A stretch of 64,000 bases of DNA from Reclinomonas americana ATCC 50394 (lineage: Eukaryota): the NCBI GenBank assembly GCA_048213135.1, contig PS015009.1, forward strand, positions 682,001-746,000. The letters run 5' to 3'. Positions 21,298 through 40,035 of the stretch are shown piece after piece (positions within the stretch are counted from its first letter, which is position 1; each line of letters opens with the position of its first letter). The notes under the pieces were generated by a model. It did not search any database and had not been told where the DNA came from. It saw only the letters and a list, made by a program, of their open reading frames with translations. Both the position numbers and the translations under genes were made by a program.

Positions 21298-21350
21298 AAC
21301 AATTAGTTTTTATGAACAATGGCTGCCGTTGTGCCGGAGCTGTTAAATGA

Positions 21351-21770: not shown

Positions 21771-21951
21771 AGATTTATGTTTATGTCAGTGTACCGTTGG
21801 TTCCCTGTGCCTTATAACAAATTTAAAGATACATTTTAATCTTGCAAAAGCCTAAGGGGGTTTTTAACGGGGATGCAGGATACAGGATACCGGATCGTTA
21901 AACCTGCTCATCTTCAAATCCGCACATTTGCATATTTGTACATCCGCACAT

Positions 21952-23007: not shown

Positions 23008-23217
23008 CCCTTGTTATTCAGTTGTTTTATAATTATAGGTTTTTTGTACTATCTTCTAAAAAACATATTTTATTAATAATCAGTCGTTTATATTTTTTCT
23101 TTCTTCGTATTTTGGCGTTAAGTTTGTACAAACTAACTGATTATCACCAATTTACTTTGTAATTTCAAAAAAAATGTTGTAGATTTCAGTTAATAAATAT
23201 TCATAAAAACAACAACA

Positions 23218-23550
23218 ATGAGAAAAGCCGACCTCATCAATCAAATTTCCGACAAAACCGGCATTCCCAAGGTAGATGTTCTGGTAACGCTTGAAACTAT
23301 GTTCAAGGCGGTAAAGAGCTCATTGGCAGAAGGTGAGAACATCTACATCCGTGGTTTTGGCAGCTTCATCACCAAAAAAAGGGCCGCTAAAATCGGCCGT
23401 AATATTAAAAAAAATGTAGCTGTGGAAATCCCGGAACATTTTATTCCCGCTTTTAAGCCGGCCAAGGAATTCATGATGGAGATCAAATCCTCCAAAAACA
23501 TCAAGGAAGCGCCTCCTGTGGAAGAAGACGACAGCGACGACGAATCGTAA
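23218..23550 (+). CDS. HU/IHF family DNA-binding protein
   Basis: MRKADLI, IRGFGSF, GRNI, PAFKP. Confidence 0.93.
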   Translation: MRKADLINQISDKTGIPKVDVLVTLETMFKAVKSSLAEGENIYIRGFGSFITKKRAAKIGRNIKKNVAVEIPEHFIPAFKPAKEFMMEIKSSKNIKEAPPVEEDDSDDES

Positions 23551-23596
23551 CCACATAAGCGCTAAACGGCGTACCTTTGCTGCCTAAATTGAACAG

Positions 23597-24448
23597 GTGA
23601 AAAAACAACTCCTCTTCGCCGGCAGCGGCATACTCCTGCTTGCAGTACTTTTCTTCTTTGGCCGTACCTCGGCACCAAAAAAAGAAATGCAGCCAGGCCC
23701 TGCTGCAGCTTCCCAGGTACCGGCATTTGATATTGATAAATATATAGCCGAAGAAAAAACACATCTTACTCCTTCCCAGTCAGTTGCGTTGGGTAAAATC
23801 GAGAACAGCGTTACCCGTGGCGACCTGGTTACCCAGCAGATCGAACGTAACAACCAGTTGGCCGCCTTCTGGAAAGACAGCGGGCATGCCATCGAACCCT
23901 ATATCTTTTACTTATCCGAAGCCGCTAAGTTGGATAAGTCAGAAAAAAGTCTCACCTTTGCTGCCCAATTCGCATTAACCAGCGTCCGGATGGAACAGGA
24001 CGAGGCTAAATTGAACTGGAAAACAGCACAGGCGATCAGCCTGTTTGAAATGGCCCTGGCACAAAATCCAAACAACGACGACCTTAAAGTAGGACTCGGC
24101 AGTTGTTATGTGTACGGGAAAGGAAGATTCGGCGGACCGCAGGAGACCATGAAAGGTATACAACAGTTACTGGAAGTGGTGCGCCGCGATTCAACGAACA
24201 TGAAAGCCCAGCTGGTTTTGGGAGTGGGTGGCATGGTAAGCGGACAATACGATAAAGCGATTGACCGTTTAACCAAAGTGGCGAATGCCCAGCCCGATAA
24301 CCTGGAAGCTGCCGCTTACCTGGCCGATGCCTATGCCGCTTCCGGCAATAAGGAACAGGCCATCAAATGGTACCAGGTAAGTAAGAAACTGGCCAATGAT
24401 CCGCACTATACCAAAGAGGTAGACGAACGGATCCGCAACATGAGATAA
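23597..24448 (+). CDS. TPR-repeat membrane-anchored protein
   Basis: N-terminal TM segment and C-terminal TPR-like helices. Confidence 0.8.
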   Translation: MKKQLLFAGSGILLLAVLFFFGRTSAPKKEMQPGPAAASQVPAFDIDKYIAEEKTHLTPSQSVALGKIENSVTRGDLVTQQIERNNQLAAFWKDSGHAIEPYIFYLSEAAKLDKSEKSLTFAAQFALTSVRMEQDEAKLNWKTAQAISLFEMALAQNPNNDDLKVGLGSCYVYGKGRFGGPQETMKGIQQLLEVVRRDSTNMKAQLVLGVGGMVSGQYDKAIDRLTKVANAQPDNLEAAAYLADAYAASGNKEQAIKWYQVSKKLANDPHYTKEVDERIRNMR

Positions 24449-24535
24449 TTACTGATGCCGCACAATAAAGCTCACGCTCCGTGCCGGCAATTAGCAATGA
24501 ACTATAAACATTATTTAAAACAAAAAAGACTAGTT

Positions 24536-24625
24536 ATGCCTTGTGGTAAAAAGAGAAAACGTCATAAAATCGCCACTCACAAGCGTAAAAAACGTTTAAG
24601 AAAGAACCGTCATAAGAAGAAGTAA
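24536..24625 (+). CDS. Small basic protein, likely ribosomal protein bS22 (AURKAIP1/COX24-like)
   Basis: Manual translation MPCGKKRKRHKIATHKRKKRLRKNRHKKK*; below the ORF-track cutoff. Confidence 0.85.
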   Translation: MPCGKKRKRHKIATHKRKKRLRKNRHKKK

Positions 24626-24769
24626 TTCACTTTTTTTTATCGGCGCCGGTATCCCCTTCCGGCGCACATATACACCCGCATACATTACCGGCAATGCAAT
24701 ACGCCGTTAATGTATGCTGTTTATGTTTTCCTTCAGTGATGTCAATGGTCTGATCAAAAAGTTTATACC

Positions 24770-26320
24770 TTGACCAAAGAATTGATAATAAATGCTGCAC
24801 CCCAGGGCGTAGAGATTGCCCTGCTGGAAGATAAAAAACTGGTGGAGCTGCATACCGAAAAAGCCGATGCCAGCTTTGGCGTGGGCGACCTTTACCTCGG
24901 GAAAGTCAAAAAACTCATTCCGGGACTGAACGCCGCCTTTATTGAAGTGGGGTTTGAAAAAGATGCCTTCCTGCATTATACCGACCTCAGCCCCTACGTA
25001 CGCTCCATACTCAAGTTCACCAACGAAGCCATACACGACAAATCCGAGAACGGATTCGATTTCTCCAAATTCAAAGTGGAACCCGAGATCGTAAAAACGG
25101 GTAAGATCGCCGAAGTACTCAGCGGCCGCCCCAACGTGCTGGTACAGATACTTAAAGAACCCATCGCCGCCAAAGGCCCACGCCTCAGTTGCGAACTGTC
25201 GCTGCCCGGCCGCTTTGTGGTGGTTACTCCTTTTAATGATATCATCGCGGTATCGCGTAAGATCCACTCCGCCGACGAACGCAAACGCCTGCACAAGATC
25301 ATTGAGGCCATCAAACCCAAAAACCTCGGTGTTATCGTACGTACGGCTGCAGAAGGTAAGCACACTGCAGAACTTCATGAAGACCTGCTGAGCCTGGTGG
25401 ATACCTGGAAGACGATCCAGCACAACCTCAAAGGCGCCGTACCTCCTGCCAAGATCCTCAGCGAACAGGGCAAAACCACCAGCATCCTCCGCGACCTGCT
25501 GAACGAGGACTTCAACAAGATTGTGGTGAATGACAAGAACATTTTCAGCGACACCAAGAATTATATCCAGCGTATTGCGCCTGACAAGGCCGATATCGTT
25601 TCTTATTACAACAACGGTTCGCCTATTTTCGACAGCTTCGGCATTACCAAACAGGTGAAAGCCGCTTTTGGTAAGACCGTGAACCTGCCCAGTGGCGCCT
25701 ACCTCATTGTTGAGCATACCGAAGCACTGCACGTGATAGACGTGAACAGCGGCTACAAAAGCGTAAGCAACAACCAGGAACAGAACGCGCTGGAGACCAA
25801 CCTGGAAGCCGCTGAAGAGATCGCCCGCCAGTTGCGCCTGCGTGACCTGGGAGGTATCATTGTGGTGGATTTCATCGATATGAAGCTGGCCGAGAACAAG
25901 AAAAAGCTCGCCGACGCGGTGGAACAATACATGCGCCCCGACAGGGCCAAGCACGCGGTACTGCCCATCAGCAAATTCGGGCTGATGCAGATCACCCGTC
26001 AGCGCATGAAGCCGGAGATGACCATCAACACCACCGAAGTGTGCCCCAGTTGCAATGGTACCGGCAAAATATCGTCCACCCTCATCCTGGAAGATGAGAT
26101 CGAAAAGAACCTCAGTTATCTCATCATGCAGCGCCACAAAGGCCTTACGGTGGAGGTACACCCCATACTGCACGCCTATCTTACCAAAGGCTGGTGGTTA
26201 TCCAAGCTCGCCAAATGGCGGCGCAAGTACAAGCAGAAGATCAAAGTGGTGCCGAATACGAATTACCACCTTACCGAGTTCCACTTTTTTGATGATAGTG
26301 ATGAAGAGATCAAACTGTAA
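24770..26320 (+). CDS. rng: Ribonuclease E/G family
   Basis: S1 domain, IDVNSG, QLRLRDLGGIIVVDFIDM, CPSCNGTG. Confidence 0.95.
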   Translation: MTKELIINAAPQGVEIALLEDKKLVELHTEKADASFGVGDLYLGKVKKLIPGLNAAFIEVGFEKDAFLHYTDLSPYVRSILKFTNEAIHDKSENGFDFSKFKVEPEIVKTGKIAEVLSGRPNVLVQILKEPIAAKGPRLSCELSLPGRFVVVTPFNDIIAVSRKIHSADERKRLHKIIEAIKPKNLGVIVRTAAEGKHTAELHEDLLSLVDTWKTIQHNLKGAVPPAKILSEQGKTTSILRDLLNEDFNKIVVNDKNIFSDTKNYIQRIAPDKADIVSYYNNGSPIFDSFGITKQVKAAFGKTVNLPSGAYLIVEHTEALHVIDVNSGYKSVSNNQEQNALETNLEAAEEIARQLRLRDLGGIIVVDFIDMKLAENKKKLADAVEQYMRPDRAKHAVLPISKFGLMQITRQRMKPEMTINTTEVCPSCNGTGKISSTLILEDEIEKNLSYLIMQRHKGLTVEVHPILHAYLTKGWWLSKLAKWRRKYKQKIKVVPNTNYHLTEFHFFDDSDEEIKL

Positions 26321-26338
26321 ACCGCAGATACTATTTTG

Positions 26339-26375
26339 AAAGAGCCCTGGCAGAGATGCCGGGGCTCTTTGTTTT
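26339..26375 (+). terminator. Intrinsic terminator of rne/rng; left border of the island
   Basis: AAAGAGCCCTGGCA-GAGA-TGCCGGGGCTCTTT followed by GTTTT. Confidence 0.85.
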
Positions 26376-26440
26376 GCCGGGTTTTTACGGGAATAAAATG
26401 GGTGACTAAAACTTAGCTTGCCCGTACATTCCGGAAAATA

Positions 26441-27310
26441 ATGGAAAATACTGATGTAATAAAAGAGATGAGGAAAATGCTTGTTTTGAAAGGATACAGT
26501 TCAAACACCATTCAGACATACCTTAATGAAATGTCGCAGTTTCTGAAAATAATTAAGGAAGTTCCTGCCAGCAGTTTTTCTGCCGAAAGGATAAAGGATT
26601 ATCTGCAATTCTGCCTGGAGAAGCAGGGGTTAAGTGAAAATACACTTCACAGCCGGATAAATGCACTTAAGTTTTATTATGAACAGGTATTGGGCAGAGA
26701 AAGACTCTTTTGGCAGATACCGCGTCCCAAAAAACCTTTGCTTTTACCAAAATTGCTGAATGAAAAAGAGCTGGCCCGTTTATTCAATGCCCTTACAAAC
26801 AGGAAGCATAAAGCAATGCTTTTTACGGTGTATAGCGCCGGATTGCGTGTCAGTGAACTTGCAGAACTGAAGATCAGCGATATTGACAGTCAACGGATGC
26901 AGATACTGATACGAAAAGCGAAAGGGAAAAAAGACAGGTATGTTAATTTAAGTCCTGTGCTGCTGGATATACTCCGGTCGTACATAAGCGTGTATAAGCC
27001 CCGCCCCCGGTTATACCTGTTTGAATCGGATCAGACCAATACAGCTTATCCAACGAGAACTGTTCAACAAATATTTTCCAATGCCAGACAAAGAGCGGGA
27101 ATTATGAAAGATGTTGGTATCCATAGCCTGAGGCACAGTTTTGCCACCCATCTGCTGGATAAGGGTACAGATATCAGGTACATAAAAGACCTGCTGGGAC
27201 ATTTTGATATCAAGACTACTGAGCGCTATCTCCATGTTTCAAAAAGGCAACTGGTGAATATTACCAGTCCGCTGGATGATCTTATGAATAAAGAGAATCT
27301 TAAATGGTAA
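26441..27310 (+). CDS. Tyrosine recombinase, IntI-related but lacking the integron-integrase insertion
   Basis: Catalytic R (GLR), K (KGKKDR), HSLRH, LLGH, Y (TERY); N-terminal YSSNTIQTY and ALKFYYEQVL, RPKK..LP, C-terminal SPLD. Confidence 0.93.
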   Translation: MENTDVIKEMRKMLVLKGYSSNTIQTYLNEMSQFLKIIKEVPASSFSAERIKDYLQFCLEKQGLSENTLHSRINALKFYYEQVLGRERLFWQIPRPKKPLLLPKLLNEKELARLFNALTNRKHKAMLFTVYSAGLRVSELAELKISDIDSQRMQILIRKAKGKKDRYVNLSPVLLDILRSYISVYKPRPRLYLFESDQTNTAYPTRTVQQIFSNARQRAGIMKDVGIHSLRHSFATHLLDKGTDIRYIKDLLGHFDIKTTERYLHVSKRQLVNITSPLDDLMNKENLKW

Positions 27311-27340
27311 TATCATTGATGCTATAAACAATGCGGTACG

Positions 27341-27427
27341 TATAACACTAAATCAATGATTTTTAAGATGTTAATGTTATAAAATTTAAATTGTAATATC
27401 ATATATTTATGTGTTAAATGCCATTGC
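27341..27427 (+). other. Putative attI-like primary recombination site (crossover G27413|TT)
   Basis: GTTAAATGCCATTGC (27413) matches 13/15 the reverse complement of cassette-1 3' end GCAACGGCATATAAC; no 19-bp hairpin upstream; TATAACA/TGTTATA inverted repeat and AAATCA-A-TGATTT palindrome. Confidence 0.65.
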
Positions 27428-27983
27428 TATCAGACGTTTCAAATAGCGACACTTGTATATCATCGTTACAGTTCAGCATTTCTATTTTAGTTTCACCCTT
27501 ATAGCCACGCTTCATATAATAGACAGCACAAGGAAACCCAAATGGGAAACCAGCTTTGCTTGCAGGGAGTGTATGTATTGAAACAAAACCGCCATAATCA
27601 AAAATCAGATTTAAAGTTCCTAAACTCTTAAACATTTTTGCCACAGGAACAAGTAAAACTATGTTATCAGCCAAAGCAAAAGAGTGTTCTAAAAATCTAT
27701 TGTAATCGCTGTATGGCGGATTTGTTACAATCCAATCTACTTTATCATTATAATCATAGTAGTTTTTACCATCAACAATTTCACACCAGTCTGTATCTTT
27801 TGGCAAATGCTTTAAAAATGCACCCTCACCTTTGCAAGGCTCTAAAACCTTACCATCAATATCAAACATCCCACAAATTTGTTTTGCCAACCAATCAGGA
27901 GTAAAAACAACATCATTTGGGTTTATGTGTGCATACTTCCCAACAATATAAGGGTTATGCTTTTGTCCGTTAATGCTTCCCAT
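27414..27983 (-). CDS. Small amino (probably N6-adenine) DNA methyltransferase (cassette 1, inverted)
   Basis: FTP, VLEPCKGEGAF (motif I), IVTNPPY (motif IV). Confidence 0.85.
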   Translation of the reverse strand: MGSINGQKHNPYIVGKYAHINPNDVVFTPDWLAKQICGMFDIDGKVLEPCKGEGAFLKHLPKDTDWCEIVDGKNYYDYNDKVDWIVTNPPYSDYNRFLEHSFALADNIVLLVPVAKMFKSLGTLNLIFDYGGFVSIHTLPASKAGFPFGFPCAVYYMKRGYKGETKIEMLNCNDDIQVSLFETSDSNGI

Positions 27984-28012
27984 ATTTTTAATTTTGTTTA
28001 ACTAACCGCAAC

Positions 28013-28115
28013 GGCATATAACAGTGGGTTTTCTGCTATACGGGCTGACGGAACATTGCCCAGCTTTCTGTTTTCCAAATTCCCGTACAGCAGAAAGCCC
28101 TGTACGTTGTAGGCA
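28013..28115 (+). repeat. attC-like element E1 (short, 37-nt loop)
   Basis: GGCATATAAC-agt-GGGTTTTCTGCTATACGGG ... CCCGTACAGCAGAAAGCCC-tgtac-GTTGTAGGCA. Confidence 0.85.
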
Positions 28116-28137
28116 ACCTTTTCGACACACTCTAATT

Positions 28138-28605
28138 ATGCAAGTTTTTAAGACAGACAAGAAACTCTTTTGGGCTAACGAACTGAAAAGTTGGTTATGG
28201 ACATTTGCCTTTGCAGCTTTGCTATATTTTGGTTTAAAGTATTATTCCTCGTTGACTAACGACAATATTATTGTTGGCGTCGTTGTTCTTTTGCTTCTTA
28301 AACTTGCAGACACATTGACCCAATACCATGTAAGAGAAATTCAAATTGACGGACAGAGGAAACAAATGACCGTGATACTAAATAGTAGAATGTCTGGTGA
28401 GAAAATAAAAAGATATGAATTAGGGGAAGTGACATCAGAATTAAAAAACAATTCGGGCCTGACAAAATATTTGTCTTCTCCATTTACCCTTAAAATATTT
28501 TTGAAACCAAAAGATGTATTTGTAATAAGCAATAGATATGGCTTTACATTAGACGCATTAACTTCGGTTGACAAAATACTAAAATCATTGAAAGCTCAAG
28601 CATGA
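28138..28605 (+). CDS. Hypothetical 2-TM membrane protein (cassette 2)
   Basis: ATG 28138, two hydrophobic segments; bounded by E1 and E2. Confidence 0.75.
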   Translation: MQVFKTDKKLFWANELKSWLWTFAFAALLYFGLKYYSSLTNDNIIVGVVVLLLLKLADTLTQYHVREIQIDGQRKQMTVILNSRMSGEKIKRYELGEVTSELKNNSGLTKYLSSPFTLKIFLKPKDVFVISNRYGFTLDALTSVDKILKSLKAQA

Positions 28606-28616
28606 CACAATAAGGC

Positions 28617-28822
28617 TGCCTACAACATTGGTATTTGCAAAAGCTGGGCAGACGGAACCCGTGTTTCAACTTTTGTTTTTCAATTTCGCTTCATATCGGG
28701 CAGGACGTTAATAATTTAGCTTTGTGCAAATCATCAACATAAATTTATAAATTTAGATTCAGGTAGCCGAGCTGACGACTATCTATTCCCCAGCCTTCGC
28801 AAATACCTGCTCGTTAGGTGCA
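28617..28822 (+). repeat. attC-like element E2
   Basis: TGCCTACAAC-att-GGTATTTGCAAAAGCTGGG ... CCCAGCCTTCGCAAATACC-tgctc-GTTAGGTGCA. Confidence 0.88.
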
Positions 28823-28873
28823 AGTATAGCGACCACCCCAATAGACAACGACAGCTAAACGAAAGCAAGCCCA

Positions 28874-29467
28874 ATGGAAATAGACAAATCAAAACAACTC
28901 ATTACTACATCTATAAATAAAGACACCGTTTTACTTTTCGATATGGACGGAACTTTGGTTGACACAGATTTTGCAAATTTTTTATCGTATCAAAAAGCGA
29001 TAGAATTAGTAATCGGTCTTGACAAGGAAATTCAATACAATCCTAATGAAAGGTTCAATCGTACAACTTTAAAAACAGTCCTGCCAAATTTGACAGAAAC
29101 TGAGTATGAAAAAATAATCCAGCAAAAAGACAAAAACTACAAAGAGCATTTATCACAAACAAAATTGAATAAACCTGTAGCAGATATTTTGCTACAATAT
29201 TCCAATACAAATAAAACGGTTTTAGTTACAAACTGCCGACAAGACAGAGCATTAATGACATTAAATTATTACAATCTTACAGACAAATTCAGTAACTTAA
29301 TATTCCGACAGATTTCAGACAATGAAAGCCGAATGAATAAATACAAATACGCATTATCAAGTTTGAACCTATCAGCTCAAACAGTTGTAGTTTTTGAAAA
29401 TGAAAAACAAGAAATTGAAGATGCTAAACTTGCAGGTATTTCGATTAATAACATTTTAAGCCTTTAG
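28874..29467 (+). CDS. HAD-superfamily phosphatase (cassette 3, gene 1)
   Basis: LLFDMDGTLVDT motif I, LVTN motif II, VFEN...AKLAG motif IV. Confidence 0.9.
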   Translation: MEIDKSKQLITTSINKDTVLLFDMDGTLVDTDFANFLSYQKAIELVIGLDKEIQYNPNERFNRTTLKTVLPNLTETEYEKIIQQKDKNYKEHLSQTKLNKPVADILLQYSNTNKTVLVTNCRQDRALMTLNYYNLTDKFSNLIFRQISDNESRMNKYKYALSSLNLSAQTVVVFENEKQEIEDAKLAGISINNILSL

Positions 29468-29470
29468 AAT

Positions 29471-30097
29471 ATGACACCTTTCACAATAGTACAAAACAAT
29501 TACTTGACACAGAACATTCAGGGGTTTTATCATACTGATTTCGGTGGCGTAGACCTGCCTAACAATCCAAATTATCTTTATAAGTTAAAAAATGACCCAC
29601 ACCATAATTGGTCAGACTTTAGAATCCAAGAAGCACAACAGCAATTATTGAGAGTACTACTTATTGACCTTCCAGAAATAGTAAGGCAAATCAATGTAAG
29701 TCCTTTAACAGTTTGTGTTGTACCAAGGGCTAAAGCTGATAATACTTATCGTCCCAATCAATTACTATTCAAAGCAACTATTAGAAATGCTGTAAATCAG
29801 TTAGGTAATAGTTTTAGAGACGGAACAAACTTTATTGTACGTCATACAAATACAAAGACTACGCATCTTAGAAAGCCGATGGAAGGCTTTGTAAATGATG
29901 GTGCCGAGCCGTATCCTGGTGTCAGTACTGCTACCTGTAATTTTTCAAGAAATATTAATGGACAAAATATTCTATTGATTGACGATATTTATACAAGAAC
30001 TGTAAACATCGATGAAGATATGATTCAATCATTATTGAATAGTGGGGCAAATTCAGTTACTTTCTATGCAATTGGAAACACTGTTTACAATCACTAA
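29471..30097 (+). CDS. Type I phosphoribosyltransferase, ComF-like (cassette 3, gene 2)
   Basis: VCVVP; ILLIDDIYTR PRPP-binding loop; GANSVTFYAIG. Confidence 0.85.
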   Translation: MTPFTIVQNNYLTQNIQGFYHTDFGGVDLPNNPNYLYKLKNDPHHNWSDFRIQEAQQQLLRVLLIDLPEIVRQINVSPLTVCVVPRAKADNTYRPNQLLFKATIRNAVNQLGNSFRDGTNFIVRHTNTKTTHLRKPMEGFVNDGAEPYPGVSTATCNFSRNINGQNILLIDDIYTRTVNIDEDMIQSLLNSGANSVTFYAIGNTVYNH

Positions 30098-30109
30098 AAC
30101 AAAATTCAA

Positions 30110-31105
30110 ATGAAGTACACAGACAACGCCATCAATATTATTACAGCAAAAACCTACAAGGGAATTGGCAGAGCATGGATTGTAAAAAATTTAAAAGGAA
30201 ATGAAAGTGCTGATACTATTGTTTCCTTATTGAATGGGAACTCAAAGGAAGATTATCTAATCACACTTGATGATTTTGAGTATGAAAAAAATAAAATAAT
30301 CAATCAAATAGAAGCTTTTGGAGAAAGCTGCGATGGAATTGTTGCAATTGGTGACAAGAGTTTTCCAAAGTATAGAGGAAATGTTAAGGAAAGTGAGCGA
30401 CCAATTTTCCTTTTTTATAAAGGCGATATAAATCTATTGGATATTGAAAATCACAACATCACCGTTATTGGACTTCTTAACCCAGACGAAGCCATTGAAA
30501 TTAGAGAAAAAAAAATAGTCGCTGAAATTGTCAATAAAGGTGTGGCAATTGTTAGCGGCTTAGCATTTGGTTGTGATAGTATTGCACACAGACAAGCACT
30601 TATTGGAGGAAAAACAATCGCAGTTCTACCAAGTCCCTTAAACAGTATTATGCCTGCAAAAAATAAAAGTTTAGCATTTGAGATAGTTGAAGATGGCGGA
30701 CTTTTAATTACTGAATATTATGACGAACATAAATCTGCAATGGATTTAAGCAGCCGATACAAAGACCGTGATAGATTGCAAGCATTATTTTGTGATACTA
30801 TTATTTTAGCCGCTAGCTATGCACAAGATTCTGCAACTCGTTGGAAAATTACAGACCAAAAATTGGACAGTGGTGCAAGATTGGCAATGGGATTTGCAAA
30901 AGAATATAATATTCCCCGAGCAGTAATGTATGACCAAAACACTGATTCAAATAATCCAATGTTTGATTTGAATCGACAATTAATTTCAGAACAAAATGTT
31001 ACTATTTTAACTCAAAAAAACTTGCAAGAAATTATCGACAAGATTAAGACTAAAGACACAAGAAGTAACAGCAATATTGCTTATCAAAAAGATTTGTTTA
31101 GCTGA
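30110..31105 (+). CDS. DprA/Smf (SLOG) family protein (cassette 3, gene 3)
   Basis: PIFLFYKGD, IVSGLAFGCDSIAHRQAL, TIAVLP, GLLITEY, RDRLQA, SGA. Confidence 0.9.
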   Translation: MKYTDNAINIITAKTYKGIGRAWIVKNLKGNESADTIVSLLNGNSKEDYLITLDDFEYEKNKIINQIEAFGESCDGIVAIGDKSFPKYRGNVKESERPIFLFYKGDINLLDIENHNITVIGLLNPDEAIEIREKKIVAEIVNKGVAIVSGLAFGCDSIAHRQALIGGKTIAVLPSPLNSIMPAKNKSLAFEIVEDGGLLITEYYDEHKSAMDLSSRYKDRDRLQALFCDTIILAASYAQDSATRWKITDQKLDSGARLAMGFAKEYNIPRAVMYDQNTDSNNPMFDLNRQLISEQNVTILTQKNLQEIIDKIKTKDTRSNSNIAYQKDLFS

Positions 31106-31129
31106 CGAGAGGGCGAGACCAAACACACC

Positions 31130-31333
31130 TGCACCTAACAGGGGGTTTGCCAAAATACGGGCGGACGGAAGTTATCTTCGGCTTTTTGTAATTCTATTGT
31201 GCTTCATATCGGGCTGGACATTATCTATTTAGCTTTTGTTGTTATCTTCATCTTCAGTTTTTCAATCATCATCGGTACCGTGCGGACGGAATACTAATTC
31301 CCGTACTTCGGCAAGCCCTGTCCGTTGGCTGCT
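31130..31333 (+). repeat. attC-like element E3
   Basis: TGCACCTAAC-agg-GGGTTTGCCAAAATACGGG ... CCCGTACTTCGGCAAGCCC-tgtcc-GTTGGCTGCT. Confidence 0.88.
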
Positions 31334-31349
31334 ACTCTAAAGCGACATA

Positions 31350-31901
31350 ATGAAACTTTTTCCATTTCTAAAAAAGAAGGACAACAAAATAGTTTACAAA
31401 TGTTCTTGTTGTGGACAAGAATATAACAGTGTGCCGCTTTGTTTTGGCGGAGACTTTCCAGACTATTATTTTTCTGTCCCACCTGAAGAAAGAAATGAGA
31501 GAATCGAATTACAACCAAGCCTTTGTGTCGTTGACAAAACACATTTTTTTCATCGTGGCAGGTTGACAATTCCTATCATCGACCACACAGAAAATTTAAT
31601 TTTCAACGTTTGGACTTCTATAAGTGAAGACAATTTTGGAATTAGAATGGATTTTTGGGAAGACCCGAAACGAGTTGACCAAGAGCCGTATTTTGGTTGG
31701 TTGCAGACAATTGTACCAACTTATGGCGACACATTAAATATTAAGACAATCGCAATCGAGCAAGAAGTTGGACTAATTCCAAATATTCATGTCATAGAAG
31801 AAAATCATCCGCTAAAGGTTGACCAAGACAATGGAATCACTTATAAAGAAGCATTAAAAAAAGTTGACGAAATATTACGAATGCATCATCAGAAAAATTG
31901 A
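31350..31901 (+). CDS. DUF2199-like protein (cassette 4)
   Basis: YKCSCCGQEY, FFHRGRLTIPI, YFGWL, HPL..DQ.NGIT. Confidence 0.75.
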   Translation: MKLFPFLKKKDNKIVYKCSCCGQEYNSVPLCFGGDFPDYYFSVPPEERNERIELQPSLCVVDKTHFFHRGRLTIPIIDHTENLIFNVWTSISEDNFGIRMDFWEDPKRVDQEPYFGWLQTIVPTYGDTLNIKTIAIEQEVGLIPNIHVIEENHPLKVDQDNGITYKEALKKVDEILRMHHQKN

Positions 31902-31920
31902 CCTCATTATTTGACCGAGC

Positions 31921-32120
31921 AGCAGCCAACATGCGGTTTGCCGCAATGCTGGCAGGCTCAAGAACAATCGGCGGCAAATCATTAATGGACTTCGGTCCCG
32001 GCGTACATTATTCTATTGAGCATTTGTATTAACTTCAGCATAAAATCAATGACCGGGCTTTTGTTTCAGCGGACGGATATAGAATCCTAGCACTGCGGCA
32101 AGCCCTGCCCGTTGGCTGCA
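31921..32120 (+). repeat. attC-like element E4
   Basis: AGCAGCCAAC-atg-CGGTTTGCCGCAATGCTGG ... CTAGCACTGCGGCAAGCCC-tgccc-GTTGGCTGCA. Confidence 0.85.
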
Positions 32121-32154
32121 AGGCGAAACAGTCCATTCAAAATTGAAATCTTAA

Positions 32155-32679
32155 ATGAAAAAGGTAATTCTTAATACGCTTATTTTACTTTCTACTTCAA
32201 CCGCATTTTCTCAGACGGAGAAATTGGAATTAAAGGTTATTGATAGCCTCAATTTCTCGAAGCAGGAACTATATGTTAGAGCGAGGGCATTTATTGCTTA
32301 TAGTTTTAAGAATTCCAAAAATGTTATTCAAATGGACGATAAAGACGCTGGGAAGATAATTTGCAAAGGAAGCATGACACCTGCCAGTAAGGGAACTTTT
32401 GGAATGACGTATCAAAACAATGTGGATTTCACCTTAACAATAGACGTGAGGGACGGTAAGTATAGAGCTCTAATTTCAGAAATATATCATTCAGGCCTTG
32501 GACCTAAGAAAGAATATGCAGGTGGGGCTATTGAAAACGAAAAGCCTGCCTGCGGTACGTTTTTTATTCCCAAAAAGGATTGGGATAAAATGAAAGAGGC
32601 AATAAAGGCAGAAGCATCCGCCTATTTAGACAGTTTAAAGACAGCGATGAATAAAGAAGTGAAAAAAGATGATTTCTAA
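32155..32679 (+). CDS. Exported DUF4468-like protein (cassette 5)
   Basis: Signal peptide; SKQELY..A, VIQMDDKDAGKII, IDVRDGKYR. Confidence 0.7.
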   Translation: MKKVILNTLILLSTSTAFSQTEKLELKVIDSLNFSKQELYVRARAFIAYSFKNSKNVIQMDDKDAGKIICKGSMTPASKGTFGMTYQNNVDFTLTIDVRDGKYRALISEIYHSGLGPKKEYAGGAIENEKPACGTFFIPKKDWDKMKEAIKAEASAYLDSLKTAMNKEVKKDDF

Positions 32680-32692
32680 CTCCTAACTGCCC

Positions 32693-32894
32693 TGCTGCTA
32701 ACATGGGCTTGGCGTAATTGGGGCTTGACGGAAAAACTTTCAGCTTCTGTACACATCCAGGCATTAGCTATGGGCCTGACCGTTTACTTAAAGTCATACG
32801 TTCTATTTAAATATTTCGTTTCTTTATAGCATCAAAGGCCGGGCGGACATAGGGTTAATTCCCCAACTACGCCAAGCCCTCGACGTTAGCTGTA
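32693..32894 (+). repeat. attC-like element E5
   Basis: TGCTGCTAAC-at-GGGCTTGGCGTAATTGGGG ... CCCCAACTACGCCAAGCCC-tcgac-GTTAGCTGTA. Confidence 0.88.
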
Positions 32895-32933
32895 ACCTTG
32901 GAGCGACACTACAAAAAATCAACAACAGACAAA

Positions 32934-33626
32934 ATGAGTATGAAGAAAATAGGATTAATAGGTGGAATTAGTTGGGTTTCGACAATAGATTATTACAAGT
33001 TCATCAACGAAGGAGTAAATACAAAATTGGGTGGACTAAATTTTGCTGAATGTATTATTTACTCTTTAAATTTTGGAGACATACAAGCAAAAAGTTGGGA
33101 CAATTCATTTGAACTACTATTGACCGCATGTGAGAGTTTGAAAAAAAGTGGTGTGGACAGTATAGTTTTGTGTGCTAATACTGCACATCTTTTTGCAGAC
33201 AAGCTTCAAGAAACAATCAATTTGCCAATTATTCATATTGGAGTAGAAACTGCAAAAGCTGTTAATAAACAAGGATATAAAAAAGTAGGACTGCTAGGAA
33301 CAAAATTCACAATGGAAATGGACTTCTACAGAAATAAACTTGAAGAGTATGGGCTTGAGGTTTTGATACCACAAAAACAAGAGACAAGAGATTACATTCA
33401 ACACACTATAAAAGAAGAATTAGGTATAGGATTTACTAATCCAGAGACAAAGAAAAACTACATTTCAATTGTAAAAGAATTGGTTGAGAATGGAGCTGAG
33501 TGTATTATTTTAGGTTGTACAGAAATACCAATGTTAATAAGTCAAGACGATTTTTCAACACCAATTTTTGACACGACAAAAATTCATTCACAAGCCATCA
33601 TTGAATATATTGTCTCAGAGAATTGA
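32934..33626 (+). CDS. Aspartate/glutamate racemase, RacX/YgeA-like (cassette 6)
   Basis: IGLIGGISW, CANTAH, LLGT, ILGCTEIP. Confidence 0.93.
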   Translation: MSMKKIGLIGGISWVSTIDYYKFINEGVNTKLGGLNFAECIIYSLNFGDIQAKSWDNSFELLLTACESLKKSGVDSIVLCANTAHLFADKLQETINLPIIHIGVETAKAVNKQGYKKVGLLGTKFTMEMDFYRNKLEEYGLEVLIPQKQETRDYIQHTIKEELGIGFTNPETKKNYISIVKELVENGAECIILGCTEIPMLISQDDFSTPIFDTTKIHSQAIIEYIVSEN

Positions 33627-33652
33627 GACAATATTAGACAGAAAAGAAAGGT

Positions 33653-33855
33653 AGCAGCCAACATGGGGTTTTCTGCTATGCTGGCTGAAGAATATATACT
33701 GATCATCCCATTCGCTTATCAGCTGTAGTTCGGGCTGAACGGAGAAACCCCAGCAACAGAATATAACATCAACTGCATTAAATTTACTCAGCAACAGTTC
33801 GGGCTGACGAATAACGGAATATCAGCACAGCAGAAAGCCCTGGCCGTTCGCGGCA
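33653..33855 (+). repeat. attC-like element E6
   Basis: AGCAGCCAAC-atg-GGGTTTTCTGCTATGCTGG ... TCAGCACAGCAGAAAGCCC-tggcc-GTTCGCGGCA. Confidence 0.87.
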
Positions 33856-33900
33856 AGCCGCCAAAGCTAAACTGTAATAACTTTTAAAGTGTCAGGTACA

Positions 33901-34407
33901 ATGACAAGAAATTTAGCGATTGCAAACCGACTTCGAGAGGTTCTTCTAAATGGAAAATGGATTGCCAACACAAACTTCAAAGAACAAATATTAAGCGTCA
34001 GTTGGGAACAGGCTATCCAAAAAGTCGGGAATTTAAATACGATTGCTTTGCTAACTTTTCATATAAACTATTATCTGCAAGGAATTCTGAACGTTTTTAA
34101 TGGCGGGCAACTTGAAATAAGAGACAAATACAGCTTTAACCTTCCAGAAATTAAGTCTGAAACAGATTGGAATGCATTAGTCAACGATTTCATAAATAAT
34201 TCTGAACTGTTTGCAAACAAAGTTGAACAAATGGCTGACAGCATGTTTGACCAACCATTTCTCGACGAAAAATACGGAAGTTATTTACGAAATATTGAAG
34301 GCGTTATTGAGCACAGCTATTATCATTTAGGGCAAGTTTCGTTAATAAGAAAGATGATTATTCAGAAACAGAATCTCAAAAGTGATAATAGTGAATCAAC
34401 AGAATAG
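33901..34407 (+). CDS. DinB/DUF1572-like protein (cassette 7)
   Basis: NTIALLTFHINYY and IEHSYYHLGQ DinB-type His motifs. Confidence 0.8.
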   Translation: MTRNLAIANRLREVLLNGKWIANTNFKEQILSVSWEQAIQKVGNLNTIALLTFHINYYLQGILNVFNGGQLEIRDKYSFNLPEIKSETDWNALVNDFINNSELFANKVEQMADSMFDQPFLDEKYGSYLRNIEGVIEHSYYHLGQVSLIRKMIIQKQNLKSDNSESTE

Positions 34408-34438
34408 AAAATTTGAGGCAGGTTTTACAAGAAAAGCC

Positions 34439-34475
34439 AGCCGCTAACATTGGTATTGCCCGCTGGTGGCAAGCA
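34439..34475 (+). repeat. Truncated attC-like element E7 (left end only)
   Basis: AGCCGCTAAC-att-GGTATTGCC, similar to the E2 left end; no right arm or GTT core seen. Confidence 0.6.
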
Positions 34476-34514
34476 TTCCAAAGCTCATCAAACAAACAGG
34501 ACAATAAAAAGAAA

Positions 34515-35069
34515 ATGAAAAAATCAATTTTGATATTAATCAGTCTTTTCAATATACTTATTAGTCAGGCGAGACAAACCGAATCAGATGTTAAAACATT
34601 AAAAGCTGACATAAACGCTAATGGACAAGTCGATGTAATAAAACCAGGCACGAATGCTCTTTCACTGAGCATTGACAATAAAAGCTATACTATTTCATAT
34701 GGTCTTTTAGGTTTTGAATCTTTATCTGAATTAAATTTTACAAATAATATTCTAACAATATCTGGATATAACAGCGGAACCGGTGCTTATAGCTGGGTTT
34801 ATAAATTCAGAAATAATAAATTAACTAAAAAAATAGAACTGATTGGATATGACGATTTCAATAAATGGGTTTCAGGAAATATTACAACAAGTATAAATAC
34901 CATAACAAATAAGTATAAAGTGATATTGGAAGAATATAACCATGCTAAACAGGAAATGGAAACTACAAAACATACAGGAAAAATTTCAATCAGGAGAATT
35001 GGGCTGACAGACATTAAGAAAGAAGACGTAGATAAACTTACTGGAATTGGCATGAAATACTGGAAGTAA
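34515..35069 (+). CDS. Hypothetical exported protein
   Basis: ATG 34515, MKKSILILISLF signal-like N-terminus; AT-rich like the cassettes. Confidence 0.7.
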   Translation: MKKSILILISLFNILISQARQTESDVKTLKADINANGQVDVIKPGTNALSLSIDNKSYTISYGLLGFESLSELNFTNNILTISGYNSGTGAYSWVYKFRNNKLTKKIELIGYDDFNKWVSGNITTSINTITNKYKVILEEYNHAKQEMETTKHTGKISIRRIGLTDIKKEDVDKLTGIGMKYWK

Positions 35070-35239
35070 TGAATATGCCAGCCACTGTCAATAAACTGAA
35101 AACCAAATACAAACAATAAACCTTGGTACAAGTACCACTCGGACCTAACTGTTAACGAACAGTTCCATGTCGCTTCAGGTTATTTTAATAAAATACATTA
35201 TATTTATTATAAATATACCTGCAACCTAAACGATACTCT

Positions 35240-35464
35240 ATGTATACAGAAACAATGGCCGAAACCTTACCGGTAAGCCAAAAAGATCATCTTCGCAAAA
35301 CCACCCACACACACCGGGAAATAACCCTCTCCGCGGCAAAGCCTGACATTACCATGCATCGCGGGGAGTGCTCTGTTTACGGGTGCTACTGTAAGGAATA
35401 TGTGGGAGCTAATGTGGGTACTTGTGAAAACTGTGGCCACCATTACGACAGTCACCGTTATTAA
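35240..35464 (+). CDS. Small Cys/His-rich protein
   Basis: C-terminal GECSVYGCYCKEY...CENCGHHYDSH. Confidence 0.5.
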   Translation: MYTETMAETLPVSQKDHLRKTTHTHREITLSAAKPDITMHRGECSVYGCYCKEYVGANVGTCENCGHHYDSHRY

Positions 35465-35579
35465 CATGTAAAGATTTTTCTGTCCGTTTCCTGCCATACA
35501 AACTGGCATGATGGTTATTTTATTGTCAGTATGTTGCCCACAACATGCCGGCGACAGGTTTCTACCAACAAACGCGTCA

Positions 35580-36110
35580 TCAGAGTTTTACACTCACCCT
35601 AAAAGTTTTGGCATCTGTTGCCTCCAGCCATAACAGCGCCCTTTTTCCGTTCTCCATCTGAACGAGAAAACAATGGTACTTAATCCCTGCAGCCAGGTCA
35701 TCTGTTATGGAGGCGAAATGCACAAAAGAGTTTTTAGTCAGGTAGCCTGTCATTCTTTGCAGGTCCTGGCTGGTATTGCATTTGTCAAACTGGTCTTTAT
35801 CGAAGCTCAGGGTGCTGATAACAGAGGCTGTGCCTCTCAGGTCAACAGGGATCTTTTCGTCCTTTCCGCTCATATTGTACCACTCCGCCACCTGCTTTTT
35901 ATCATTCTGGGTTATGATCAGGGCCAGGTCCACGCTTGATTTATTGTTCTTCGCCTCTTCAGTTGTAAATACTTTTTTCTGTGATATACCCAGGTAACTG
36001 TTGGCGCCAACCCGGGGGTTCAGGGTAGCGGTAAAACTGGTCAGTTTTTGCGCCAAGCCCGGCAAAACGGTCATTATGCTTAAAAAAGTAACTACAATTG
36101 ATTTCAACAT
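35580..36110 (-). CDS. Hypothetical exported protein
   Basis: 176-aa ORF with a signal-like N-terminus. Confidence 0.65.
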   Translation of the reverse strand: MLKSIVVTFLSIMTVLPGLAQKLTSFTATLNPRVGANSYLGISQKKVFTTEEAKNNKSSVDLALIITQNDKKQVAEWYNMSGKDEKIPVDLRGTASVISTLSFDKDQFDKCNTSQDLQRMTGYLTKNSFVHFASITDDLAAGIKYHCFLVQMENGKRALLWLEATDAKTFRVSVKL

Positions 36111-36293
36111 GATGATTTGATTTTTTAGGATGCAATTTAATATTCATTAAAGTAAATTGCAATATTTTAAATTACTTTAGGGTTAGGCTCTTCTGGCAAT
36201 TTTGATATGCCTGTCAGCACCGGCGCCAGCTTCACGCGATGATATTTTTCGTATTTTCAGTCGGCATCACCTGCAACAATAAAACATGACCAT

Positions 36294-36863
36294 ATGAGAA
36301 AAATAATTTCCTTCATGCATATATCCCTCAATGGCTTTGTAGCCGGCCCGAATGGTGAAATGGACTGGATCATCATCAATGAGGAGCTCTTCGATCATGT
36401 TGGTAAACGGATAAGCAAAGGCGACACGGCCTTATACGGACGGGTAACTTATGATATGATGGAAAGCTACTGGCCAACCGCGGGAGACAAACCCACTGCA
36501 AGTAAACACGATATTGAACACTCCAGGTGGTACAGCCAAGTCCACAAAGTGGTATTATCAAAAACCATGAAAGACACAGACCTGGCCAACACCACCATCA
36601 TCAGCGACAATCTTCCGGGCGAATTAAATAAAATAACACAGCAGCCGGGCGAAGACATCCTGCTTTTTGGCAGCCCTACGGCAACACATGCACTCATACA
36701 GCTGGGACTGATCGACGGCTACTGGCTGTTCGTTAACCCGGTTATTCTCGGGCAGGGCATTCCATTATTTACAGGCATCAAAGACAAAGTAAAACTGAAA
36801 CTGCTGACCACCCACCAATTTGCGTGCGGGGTAACTGAACTGAATTATACCGTAGTAAGATAA
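36294..36863 (+). CDS. Dihydrofolate reductase / RibD C-terminal family protein
   Basis: SLNGFVAGPNG, YGRVTY, GLID, PVILGQGIPLF. Confidence 0.9.
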   Translation: MRKIISFMHISLNGFVAGPNGEMDWIIINEELFDHVGKRISKGDTALYGRVTYDMMESYWPTAGDKPTASKHDIEHSRWYSQVHKVVLSKTMKDTDLANTTIISDNLPGELNKITQQPGEDILLFGSPTATHALIQLGLIDGYWLFVNPVILGQGIPLFTGIKDKVKLKLLTTHQFACGVTELNYTVVR

Positions 36864-36934
36864 AACGAACACCGATATTGGCTTTTCTCAATAACCTGCC
36901 CATGAAAACTGAGCACCCCTAATTTTAAAGCCAT

Positions 36935-37366
36935 ATGAATACAAAAGCACAGATCAAACAGTATATTGACAGCCAGCCTGAACCCAAACGCGGCGACATG
37001 CAAAACCTGCATGGCATCATCCAGGAAATAATGCCTGCAGGTGAACTTTGGTTTCTCGATGGCAAAGACAGCAACAATAAAACCGTTTCCAACCCCAACA
37101 TAGGGTACGGGCGCTACACCATACAATACGCAGGCGGAAAAACCAGGGAGTTTTACCAGGTTGGCATGAGTGCCAACACAACCGGTATATCTGTCTATAT
37201 CCTTGGCATCGACGATAAAACCTACCTGGCCCAAACCTATGGCAAAAAACTGGGCAAGGCCAGTGTTACGGGGTATTGTATTAAGTTCAAAGCGCTGAAA
37301 GATATAAATGTTGATGTACTGAAAGAAGCCATCCTCTACGGGGTTAAAAACTCGCTCCGAAACTAA
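36935..37366 (+). CDS. DUF1801 (YdhG-like) protein
   Basis: YIDS, IGYG.Y, LGK....CIKFK.L.D. Confidence 0.75.
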   Translation: MNTKAQIKQYIDSQPEPKRGDMQNLHGIIQEIMPAGELWFLDGKDSNNKTVSNPNIGYGRYTIQYAGGKTREFYQVGMSANTTGISVYILGIDDKTYLAQTYGKKLGKASVTGYCIKFKALKDINVDVLKEAILYGVKNSLRN

Positions 37367-37513
37367 TATTACAACCAGCACTGGAAATAATATCCGGCTG
37401 ACAATAGCCATTTTCCCGTTCCTCTTCACAAATGGTATTTGTTACACCTCCGTGCCAGTGGGTATTTCCCTGTTATGCCCCGCCCCCTACATTTACCGCA
37501 CTAAAAATCAATC

Positions 37514-38410
37514 ATGAACTTTCGATTCCTTTTAACCCTGGTATTGGCCGCATGTTCCATCAGCCTGTCCGCACAATCGTCCCTTACGCAAAAGTTTCGC
37601 AAAAATGTGCCGGTGCAAATGACGTACTATGAAAGGTTATACGACGCCAACAACACCCGCACCTCCAAAAACAAACTGAAAAAGACCAAAGAGTTCACCG
37701 ACAGTGAAGTAGAAGAAATATTCACCCGTCTCGGCATCGATTCGGAGATTCCCTCAAAACTCAATAACCAGGACAGGGAAGCACTGCAACATTACGTGGT
37801 GTATGAGATCTCCGATTTTTCTTTAATGGGATATAAATTCTCATTGATCTGGATACCCTATGACGAAAATAAACACATGCCCAAAAACATGCAGCCACCC
37901 ACAAAAGACGGCACCATCTTCTATACTTATACCAAGCACCTTTCCTTTAATGGTAAAGATGCTTCCGGCAATCTTCTTGCCAAAGCAGGCACACCACTTT
38001 CCGCGCCGGAACCCATAAACGTGAGTGTTGCCGACATGAGCCAGTTCCTCAATGGTGGAAAAGAGAAAATGAAAGACATACCACAGGTATTCAAAGCCGG
38101 CGCCGATCCGCAACTCGTAAAACAGGGCGAGGCTGATTATTATGCCATGCAGTCCCGCTTCCCGAATATTTCAAAAGAGTACACCCAGTTCAGGGATAAG
38201 GTATTCGCACAGGTACTGGAAGACAGGAAGACCGGCACCCAGGCCAACCTCTTCATGAAAAAAGAAAGAGAGGGCGGACAAAAATTGCTCGATGAGTGGC
38301 ATTCCAAAATCGACGCCTTCCTCAAAAAGTACAGTGCCATCATCACTCCCGAAGCTGAAGCCGAAATAAGTGGCTGGCACAACCAGGCACTGCATTATAT
38401 CGATTATTAA
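37514..38410 (+). CDS. Hypothetical exported protein
   Basis: 298-aa ORF with a signal peptide. Confidence 0.7.
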   Translation: MNFRFLLTLVLAACSISLSAQSSLTQKFRKNVPVQMTYYERLYDANNTRTSKNKLKKTKEFTDSEVEEIFTRLGIDSEIPSKLNNQDREALQHYVVYEISDFSLMGYKFSLIWIPYDENKHMPKNMQPPTKDGTIFYTYTKHLSFNGKDASGNLLAKAGTPLSAPEPINVSVADMSQFLNGGKEKMKDIPQVFKAGADPQLVKQGEADYYAMQSRFPNISKEYTQFRDKVFAQVLEDRKTGTQANLFMKKEREGGQKLLDEWHSKIDAFLKKYSAIITPEAEAEISGWHNQALHYIDY

Positions 38411-38411
38411 A

Positions 38412-38441
38412 CTGTCATCCCCGGCGAAGCGAGGTATCTCT
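38412..38441 (+). repeat. REP-like dispersed intergenic repeat
   Basis: TGTCATCCCCGGCGAAGCGAGGTATCT resembles the reverse complement of 63295-63320 (TGTCATACCGAGGTAACGAGGTATCT). Confidence 0.55.
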
Positions 38442-38701
38442 CTGGTGCAAATTATTCCGGGGGCTTTCTGCTCCCATACTCCCATCATCACCTGCAGGCG
38501 CTATCCGTTGCAACCTGCGCTGCGCTGCGGTTTTCACTGCTATCGCCCAGCCTGTGAGCGGTTGTGCGTTATTCAGCAATTTCCAATGAAATAACGCGGC
38601 ATAAGGAAACCGGACAGCCTTACTATATTATCTGGTTTTGTAACTTTATCTGGCGCCTAAACTGATTTTTTACGCTTATAGCTAAACTTAAATAAACAGC
38701 A

Positions 38702-39430: not shown

Positions 39431-39454
39431 CAATAAAAAACCAACACGTGTAAG

Positions 39455-39958: not shown

Positions 39959-40035
39959 TCATATTGGTTTTTCGGGAAAACCTCCACTTTCTATGATATA
40001 AAGCGGTCAAATTATATAAAGCTAAATCCTTCCTC

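Follow-up and report, generated by a model that had tools for sequence, protein, structure and literature searches.

A chromosomal gene-cassette array behind rne, probably an integron-like platform of a type common in Bacteroidota

Integrons are the textbook bacterial device for gene capture, and they are defined and sought by an insertion specific to their integrase, IntI. A locus in a 64-kb stretch of DNA (contig PS015009.1 of assembly GCA_048213135.1, positions 682,001 to 746,000; hereafter the window, numbered from its first letter) raises the question whether the same cassette logic also runs on a simpler recombinase. A gene for a Xer-like tyrosine recombinase follows rne at this locus and is itself followed by a docking site and by seven units closed by hairpin elements with AAC and GTT boxes. 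We conclude, with high confidence, that this is an integron-like platform for gene cassettes, located on the chromosome and of a type that many Bacteroidota have in common. If such a simpler recombinase does this work in about a quarter of the Bacteroidota sampled here, a large mobile pool of accessory genes would be invisible to the current tools. The idea that folded sites require the IntI insertion would then need revising, and the origin of integrons would become testable by comparing both systems.

Cassette boundaries and turnover at the docking site

An earlier reading of this DNA, made from its letters alone (the sequence-only reading), had described a tyrosine recombinase after rne, then seven unrelated AT-rich units, each closed by a related AAC...GTT element of which the last is truncated. 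The Pfam matches, the GC content and the coding content bore out this description. The gene 5′ of the recombinase encodes RNase E/G (24770–26320; Pfam RNase_E_G, 336 bits), the coding contents of the seven units are mutually unrelated, and the GC content of the array is 0.31–0.41 (600-nt windows within 27200–35299) as against 0.37–0.53 in the flanks. A covariance model, R1, was built from the six intact elements (E1–E6), and the window was scanned with it, filters off. R1 scored 105–199 bits on E1–E6, the matches being 107 nt long for E1 and 204–210 nt for E2–E6, and the remnant E7 scored 15 bits with R1 and 21.4 bits with a further model, R2. In the rest of the 64 kb, R1 gave nothing above 12 bits on the plus strand. 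The elements are real, beyond chance, and confined to the array within the window. Two R1 matches, at 39149–39264 and 40007–40119, were rejected as chance (E 0.3–0.7, loop part only).

All seven unit boundaries fell exactly at G|TT, where the sequence-only reading had placed them (GTT at 27413–15, 28106–08, 28813–15, 31324–26, 32111–13, 32885–87 and 33846–48). The features of the array, with open reading frame abbreviated as ORF, are as follows.

26441–27310, plus strand: tyrosine recombinase, 289 aa, Xer-like (Pfam and NCBIfam, structure alignment, motif positions)
27311–27415, plus strand: attI-like docking site, about 100 bp, crossover G27413/T27414, ending ...TATCATATATTTATGTG|TT
27414–28106, plus strand: cassette 1, closed by E1 (model match 28010–28116, 104.8 bits)
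28107–28813, plus strand: cassette 2, ORF 28138–28605 of no known family, closed by E2 (28614–28823)
28814–31324, plus strand: cassette 3, three genes, closed by E3 (31127–31334, 199 bits)
31325–32111, plus strand: cassette 4, DUF2199 protein 31350–31901, closed by E4 (31918–32121)
32112–32885, plus strand: cassette 5, DUF4468 protein 32155–32679 with a signal-peptide-like start, closed by E5 (32690–32895)
32886–33846, plus strand: cassette 6, Asp/Glu racemase 32934–33626, closed by E6 (33650–33856)
33847–34475, plus strand: cassette 7, DinB_2-like protein 33889–34407 (weak, E 0.003), truncated E7 (34436–34472)

The boundaries carry a signature of circularisation. Among 30 adjacent pairs, the 6 nt 3′ of GTT were perfectly reverse-complementary to the next element's 6 nt ahead of AAC in 20, and they matched the box of their own element in only one. 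With permuted pairing, the mean was 1.04 perfect matches and the maximum was 5 in 5000 permutations. Three of the five window pairs (E1–E2, E2–E3 and E3–E4) were perfect. The test used 54 located elements from 55 submitted, one not being located; these were the six window elements and 49 of the 58 matches in genome loci that had been fetched via the recombinase (see below). Four matches cut by locus ends, three on the minus strand, one partial and one low-complexity match were left out. The shift of the box by one unit implies that each unit was once a circle, its site cut between G and TT, as with integron cassettes. In keeping with this shift, the outer boxes within an array pair only at AAC/GTT. 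The 63 intervals between elements had a median length of 663 nt, and in 59 of them the longest ORF was co-oriented; the longest ORF covered a median of 80% of the interval.

Entry of cassettes next to the recombinase predicts that the first of them opens with GTT and then the complement of the box of the first element. This GTT plus 6 nt was found 3′ of the recombinase gene in 15 of 19 loci (9/9 letters), and three further loci, the window among them, matched at 8/9 (GTTAAATGC at 27413, where GTTATATGC was expected). The match mostly lies 100–125 bp beyond the recombinase stop codon. The docking site of the window is homologous to a conserved stretch 3′ of the recombinase gene in related Chitinophagaceae loci, where a conserved ...GGATTGTCCTAACGACAATAC...TCTTATAnCATAAATTTAyGTG|TT precedes the match; the window copy of it is recognisable. 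A few bases 5′ of the crossover GTT, the end of the docking site (27395–27413; also in L012, L014, L021 and other loci) has TAnnTTT(G/A), in the form TATATTTG in L012 and L014 and TATATTTA in the window. It resembles the −7 promoter box of Bacteroidota and, judged by this motif, could drive transcription of the first cassette.

Turnover between strains was assessed from the assembled contigs of four sequencing runs (X1, X2, X18 and X19), aligned to 21000–40000. Rare excision products are invisible in contigs, and turnover was counted only where contigs run on unlike at 27415. None of the public sequencing runs covered the 9-kb stretch in full; the highest proportion of its words found in any run was 0.51. 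The flanks of the window and of the contigs from other samples were ~99.2–99.6% identical (6 differences in 1666 nt for X1 record 4, 19 in 4314 nt for X2 record 31). In X1 record 4 and X2 record 29 the alignment ends at 27415 and is followed by 153 and 1155 unlike letters, respectively; X19 has a loose end at 27415 that begins GCCTGCAA, a typical half-box. Matching resumes at the 3′ end of E3 in X1 (from 31317) and of E4 in X2 (from 32096), and from there runs through the distal cassettes into the right flank. Contig cover of cassettes 1–3 was thin or absent in all four runs. In the window's species, near-identical strains agree in recombinase, docking site and distal cassettes and differ in the proximal cassettes, the break lying at the docking-site GTT. 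Four contig joints with a short side of 20–28 letters were disregarded as likely cross-matches between elements, as was a fifth, which has a side of 47 letters and jumps just 79 nt within E2 (28703 to 28783).

A second, independent pair of loci behaved in the same way. Across 2665 nt that span flank, recombinase and docking site, L088 and L089 have 99.7% identity; they split directly 3′ of ...ACGTGTT(A), where each goes on with a half-box fitting its own first element. The two arrays have one 539-nt unit in common and are otherwise different. The cassette structure with a G|TT crossover, proposed by the sequence-only reading, is upheld both by the complementarity of the boxes across cassette boundaries and by the splitting of strains at the docking-site GTT. 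The same reading had named an identical gene order in related strains as evidence to the contrary; the order differs between near-identical strains.

Hairpin elements and recombinase compared with known systems

The six window elements have a common 26-pair stem, in which 13 pairs covary even among these six. Among 56 elements (from the window and 22 loci), the inner helix was 94.4% paired and showed compensatory changes at 13 of its 18 pairs. The covariation score was 0.494 compared to 0.145 in shuffles, none of 500 of which reached it, and to at most 0.082 when the partners were slid. The 56-element alignment was fitted to the covariance model, which favours the structure and may hide rare bulges; a separate RNAalifold run on this alignment kept the same inner helix. 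Two of the three positions of the AAC/GTT box are invariant in all 56 elements, and the third is constant in 53. The arms are asymmetric, with a conserved A·C mismatch (54/56) and a spacer of 2 nt on the AAC side (52/56) and of 4 nt on the GTT side (51/56). The consensus has no single-base bulges, that is, no extrahelical bases.

Most sites belong to one of two length classes, ~140 or ~200 nt. Their loops are not random in sequence. The loop of the ~200-nt class holds three direct repeats of GGGC(T/G)GAC(G)G (31157–31170, 31209–31222 and 31282–31293 in E3, and the same places in E2 and E4–E6), and in that of the ~140-nt class direct repeats of the (C)AACATTTGTGC kind, similar to the AAC box, occur twice or three times. 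Structure prediction gave no covarying pairs within the loop. From their sequence, the loop repeats may be candidate accessory binding sites.

The recombinase consists of the Pfam domains Phage_integrase and SAM_4, and by motif position all its catalytic residues are present (R136, H228, R231, H254 and Y263). It aligns with the integron integrase VchIntIA (2a3v) in two stretches, residues 9–187 with IntI4 8–186 and 196–279 with 234–318, and only eight of its residues sit where VchIntIA/IntI4 has the 47-residue IntI-specific insertion. The insertion is absent. The match to the integron-integrase model TIGR02249 is split in two in the same manner and reaches 187.9 bits against a cut-off of 265, and PRK15417 gives 124 bits against 435. 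The best curated match is NF040815 (XerA/"integron integrase", XerA_Arch), at 211.2 bits against a cut-off of 220. The models for XerC (177 bits, cut-off 335) and XerD (170.9 bits, cut-off 330) both remain under their equivalog cut-offs, and the closest solved structure is that of XerA (137 bits).

The likeness to classical integrons, sedentary chromosomal ones and the 'reverse' integrons of Treponema included, extends to a recombinase beside a docking site, mostly single-ORF co-oriented cassettes, AAC...GTT hairpins, a G|TT crossover with the downstream half-box in the next cassette, proximal turnover and defence cassettes. The arrays of the Treponema integrons are co-oriented as well. Of the features by which integrons are recognised, the imperfect AAC/GTT inverted repeats, the G|TT crossover and an attI beside the recombinase with cassette entry are present; the IntI insertion, an integrase-model score over the cut-off and the extrahelical bases are not. 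The folded sites of integrons carry extrahelical bases, in contrast to the bulge-less hairpins here, which moreover are mostly ~140 or ~200 nt long with direct-repeat motifs in the loop. Most members of the recombinase family also have an extra N-terminal domain, unlike integron integrases. The sequence-only reading had called the array non-canonical, and rightly so by these measures.

The recombinase-less clusters and single sites of this element type in some genomes are like clusters of attC sites lacking integron-integrases (CALINs), whereas the window array is joined to its own recombinase and docking site. XerCD integrates the folded single-stranded attachment site of the CTX phage at dif with housekeeping recombinases. 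As a precedent, it shows a Xer-type enzyme that lacks the IntI insertion joining a folded hairpin to a duplex site, although it concerns a single phage genome at dif and enzymes of the host, not a cassette array. Smyshlyaev et al. (bioRxiv 10.1101/542381) defined an "Integron-like" recombinase subgroup, among whose members are enzymes of IS91 and IS3 transposons that have no insertion; the part of this preprint available to us makes no mention of cassette arrays. As described there, those enzymes are, like the one in the window, simple two-domain recombinases related to IntI and devoid of the insertion. The window gene differs from them in that no IS91 or IS3 transposase stands beside it, its neighbours being RNase E/G and the cassettes, and in that it heads an array with its own docking site. 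According to the IntegronFinder 2.0 paper (PMC9024848), only In0 elements had earlier been found in Bacteroidetes, then one complete integron, that of Salinibacter ruber, and integrons are almost absent from Bacteroidota. Our full-text literature searches, which did not cover the supplementary per-phylum CALIN tables of the IntegronFinder papers, returned no description of such a Bacteroidota cassette platform.

Distribution and alternative explanations

Loci were fetched via the recombinase and its gene was set to the plus strand; 488 kb upstream and 329 kb downstream of it were searched in the genome loci, and 294 and 217 kb in the metagenome loci. In 79 genome loci, 53 of 58 model matches lay downstream of, and co-oriented with, a homologous recombinase. 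The 80 metagenome loci, some of which duplicate genome loci (e.g. L010/L101, L012/L104 and L014/L108), gave 50 of 54, so that the pooled count is 103 of 112. The hosts include Chitinophagaceae, Cytophagales, Spirosomataceae, Algoriphagus, Belliella, Mongoliitalea, Paludibacter and Seramator. The element type was found (E <= 0.001) in 35 of 151 sampled Bacteroidota genomes, roughly a quarter; this was an even sample of the phylum around one array-bearing genome, with 16 candidates scored per genome, and the counts are lower bounds. In none of three array-bearing genomes searched, one of them complete and all other than that of the window, did an integron integrase exceed the TIGR02249 cut-off. 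Every match to this model there skips the insertion, and separate Xer-like genes are present. One genome, G042, has a single recombinase with six elements directly downstream and further clusters elsewhere.

The distinct gene-capture platform of the sequence-only reading is, by these counts, recurrent across Bacteroidota loci and not a one-off. That reading had also held that elements scattered without a link to the recombinase would speak against it. Within the window they are confined to the array; in some other genomes scattered copies do occur. On contig C1 of G066, where ~25 elements were found, these lie mostly on the plus strand at ~0.57–3.46 Mb and mostly on the minus strand at ~3.7–4.9 Mb and below 0.65 Mb, and the switch of strand suggests an orientation bias relative to replication. 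A tblastn search with 16 window proteins (rne, flank and cassette products) against 165 loci returned only a RibD_C homologue, in L012/L104. The platform is not behind rne in these relatives, and no cassette of the window is common to them. A scan of metagenome contigs found none of the same species; the highest identity was 80% for a partial match and 74% for a full-length one.

Several observations weigh against reading the locus as a working integron-like platform. The recombinase of the window has no N-terminal extension, and nearly all relatives with a complete upstream sequence carry 74–151 extra residues. Because this extension is absent, the activity of the window copy is doubtful; judged by comparison of the sequences, the enzyme may be truncated, weaker or inactive. 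The terminal element E7 retains its AAC side and a portion of the stem and has no GTT. Ten of the 30 adjacent pairs are without a perfect boundary signature, the window pairs E4–E5 and E5–E6 reaching only 4/6, and some such pairs may hide undetected elements. Locus L021 fails the docking-site test (6/9). Many elements lie far from any recombinase in some genomes (~25, single or paired, in G066; several clusters in G042), and because of these recombinase-less copies the link between element and recombinase is not exclusive.

The missing extension, the truncated last element and the mere 120 nt between the rne stop and the recombinase start would all fit an array that is a fossil here, or is helped in trans, its recombinase having lost the N-terminal DNA-binding domain on landing behind rne and no longer moving cassettes. 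This is possible, and we judge it rather unlikely: contigs with the same rne–recombinase junction enter different first cassettes exactly at the docking-site GTT, which implies that the short gene was already present in the lineage when the turnover took place. Besides, recombinases of similarly short length (291 and 315 aa) are found repeatedly in other organisms, with 31 members in one cluster, and the catalytic residues are intact. Recombination of the sites as ordinary duplex DNA in the manner of Xer/dif, instead of as folded single strands, is improbable. In its favour, the enzyme scores best with XerA (137 bits; NF040815, 211 bits) and lacks the insertion that reads extrahelical bases, and the hairpins have no single-base bulges. 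However, 18 stem positions away from the crossover keep their complementarity by compensatory changes, as is expected of a folded and not of a duplex substrate, and the asymmetric spacers and the A·C mismatch give the two strands different shapes.

Two further alternatives concern the elements themselves. The boxes, the inner stem, the variable loop and the ORF upstream of the site reproduce the attC layout, and the genome of the window may encode, at another place, a classical IntI or a recombinase paralogue of full length, which also counts against our reading. The array could then be a remnant of a classical integron (a CALIN) served by a true IntI, with the Xer-like neighbour incidental. 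This is very improbable given the absence of an integron integrase over the cut-off from the three array-bearing genomes, the conserved docking site that abuts the Xer-like gene, and the 103 of 112 matches that follow this gene in its own orientation. Least probable of all, in our estimate, is that the elements are self-spreading intergenic repeats, of the kind of repetitive extragenic palindromes or miniature inverted-repeat transposable elements, or terminators, which merely piled up here. Their single and double copies throughout G066 and G042 and their position after ORFs, like that of terminators, would agree with this; the shift of box complementarity by one unit, the divergence of strains exactly at GTT, the lack of any copy outside the array in the 64 kb and the strict co-orientation with the recombinase would not.

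In the integron-like platform each cassette is a discrete unit that starts with the TT of a GTT and closes with the G of the following one; it has one gene, sometimes a small operon, and an attC-like hairpin laid out as AAC box, 20-bp stem, loop, stem and GTT box. We propose the following mechanism. The recombinase would cut between G and TT, and a cassette would leave as a circle through recombination of two hairpin sites. Insertion of circles at the docking site would then place new genes beside the recombinase and push older ones distally. A folded single-stranded substrate is likely because complementarity, and not sequence, is conserved, and by analogy with integrons the hairpin would most likely be active in this form. 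The anatomy, the circularisation signature at the boundaries, the strain turnover located exactly at the docking-site GTT, the covariation of the stems and the tie to this recombinase family are observed; we infer the catalytic role of this recombinase, the single-stranded state of its substrate and the strand used. The window enzyme, short of the N-terminal domain, may work less well or may depend on a paralogue elsewhere in the genome.

A possible wider lineage, tet(X3) and the contents of the cassettes

We lean, with some reserve, towards a broader view, in which these loci represent a phylum-wide integron lineage of Bacteroidota without IntI, characterised by a Xer-like recombinase, usually with an N-terminal domain like those with which the XPB and UvsW helicases recognise branched or distorted DNA, by bulge-less hairpins and by a docking site behind the recombinase gene. 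The lineage would be an independent invention of the integron principle or its insertion-less ancestral form, and it would be the context from which the tigecycline-resistance gene tet(X3) reached Acinetobacter plasmids.

The N-terminal domain, absent from the window, spans ~75 residues in most family members, with the consensus ...HRxQECIGIYF...RWSxTxKCWY... (e.g. L017, 9599–10000). Its structure was predicted with a mean pLDDT (predicted local distance difference test) of 79, and 74 of 134 residues reached 90 or more. The model is most like the N-terminal DNA-recognition (damage-recognition) domain of XPB (Z 6.6, root-mean-square deviation 1.9 Å over 56 residues), followed by the N-terminal domain of T4 UvsW (Z 6.4, 2.1 Å over 63 residues); the Z values of this likeness, 6.2–6.6, are in the range that the comparison tool calls common. 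Foldseek gave nothing at E <= 0.001 for this domain, and the SMARCAL1 HARP domain appeared weakly (E 0.14).

Relatives of the recombinase are also found in other mobile contexts. The chromosome OW818663.1 (loci L035 and L073–L078) has at least seven copies of a recombinase 41–43% identical to that of the window, six of them with identical match statistics, which points to a mobile element present in several copies and served by a related enzyme. In L076 the model gave one weak match (24 bits), on the minus strand. Plasmid relatives with 45–47% identity are annotated next to IS91 transposases.

On the Acinetobacter indicus plasmid p80-1-2-tetX3 (L166, 5028–7215), an N-terminally shortened relative, 49.8% identical to the window recombinase over residues 51–281, is found 190 nt 5′ of tet(X3), in the same orientation. 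A docking-site-like stretch ending in GTT stands between the two genes. R2, which models the 140-nt class, scored 41.6 bits (E 5.6e-8) immediately 3′ of the tet(X3) stop codon, and only the AAC-side half is recognisable by eye. R1 gave only 9.3 bits on this locus, where the 140-nt-class model was needed. Given this arrangement, the first cassette of a Bacteroidota array may have been the source of tet(X3). Together with an anti-phage cassette in the window, the recombinase relative before tet(X3) gives the platform a bearing on phage defence and on the origin of resistance genes.

The anti-phage genes are those of cassette 3, which are listed here with the last AT-rich ORF of the locus.

28874–29467, plus strand: cassette 3 gene 1, HAD hydrolase (Pfam HAD_2)
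29471–30097, plus strand: cassette 3 gene 2, ShosT-like phosphoribosyltransferase (PADLOC ShosT, E 6.9e-8)
30110–31105, plus strand: cassette 3 gene 3, ShosA-like DprA-fold protein (Pfam DNA_processg_A; PADLOC ShosA, E 2.1e-43)
34515–35069, plus strand: last AT-rich ORF, 184 aa, no known family

The ShosT and ShosA genes are adjacent and co-oriented, as the definition of Shosta demands, and by these matches cassette 3 is a predicted Shosta-type anti-phage system with an extra HAD gene in one cassette (28874–31105). The ORF of cassette 1 (27414–27983) is on the minus strand and encodes a small DNA methyltransferase-like protein, with the motifs EPCKGEGAF and TNPPY (NPPY) and a weak match to PADLOC MTase_II (E 4e-4). 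Cassette 1 is one of only 2 of the 63 inter-element intervals with the longest ORF on the opposite strand.

The ORF at 34515–35069 may be a terminal cassette whose element was lost. The GC content is back at the level of the flanks beyond ~35300, and the genes to the right of 35.3 kb (RibD_C, DUF1801 and small ORFs of no known family) may be old cassettes with decayed sites. The RibD_C protein (36294–36863), past the apparent end of the array, has a 57%-identical homologue in L012 (4031–5041), which sits just 3′ of a short remnant of a terminal element (17.7 bits).

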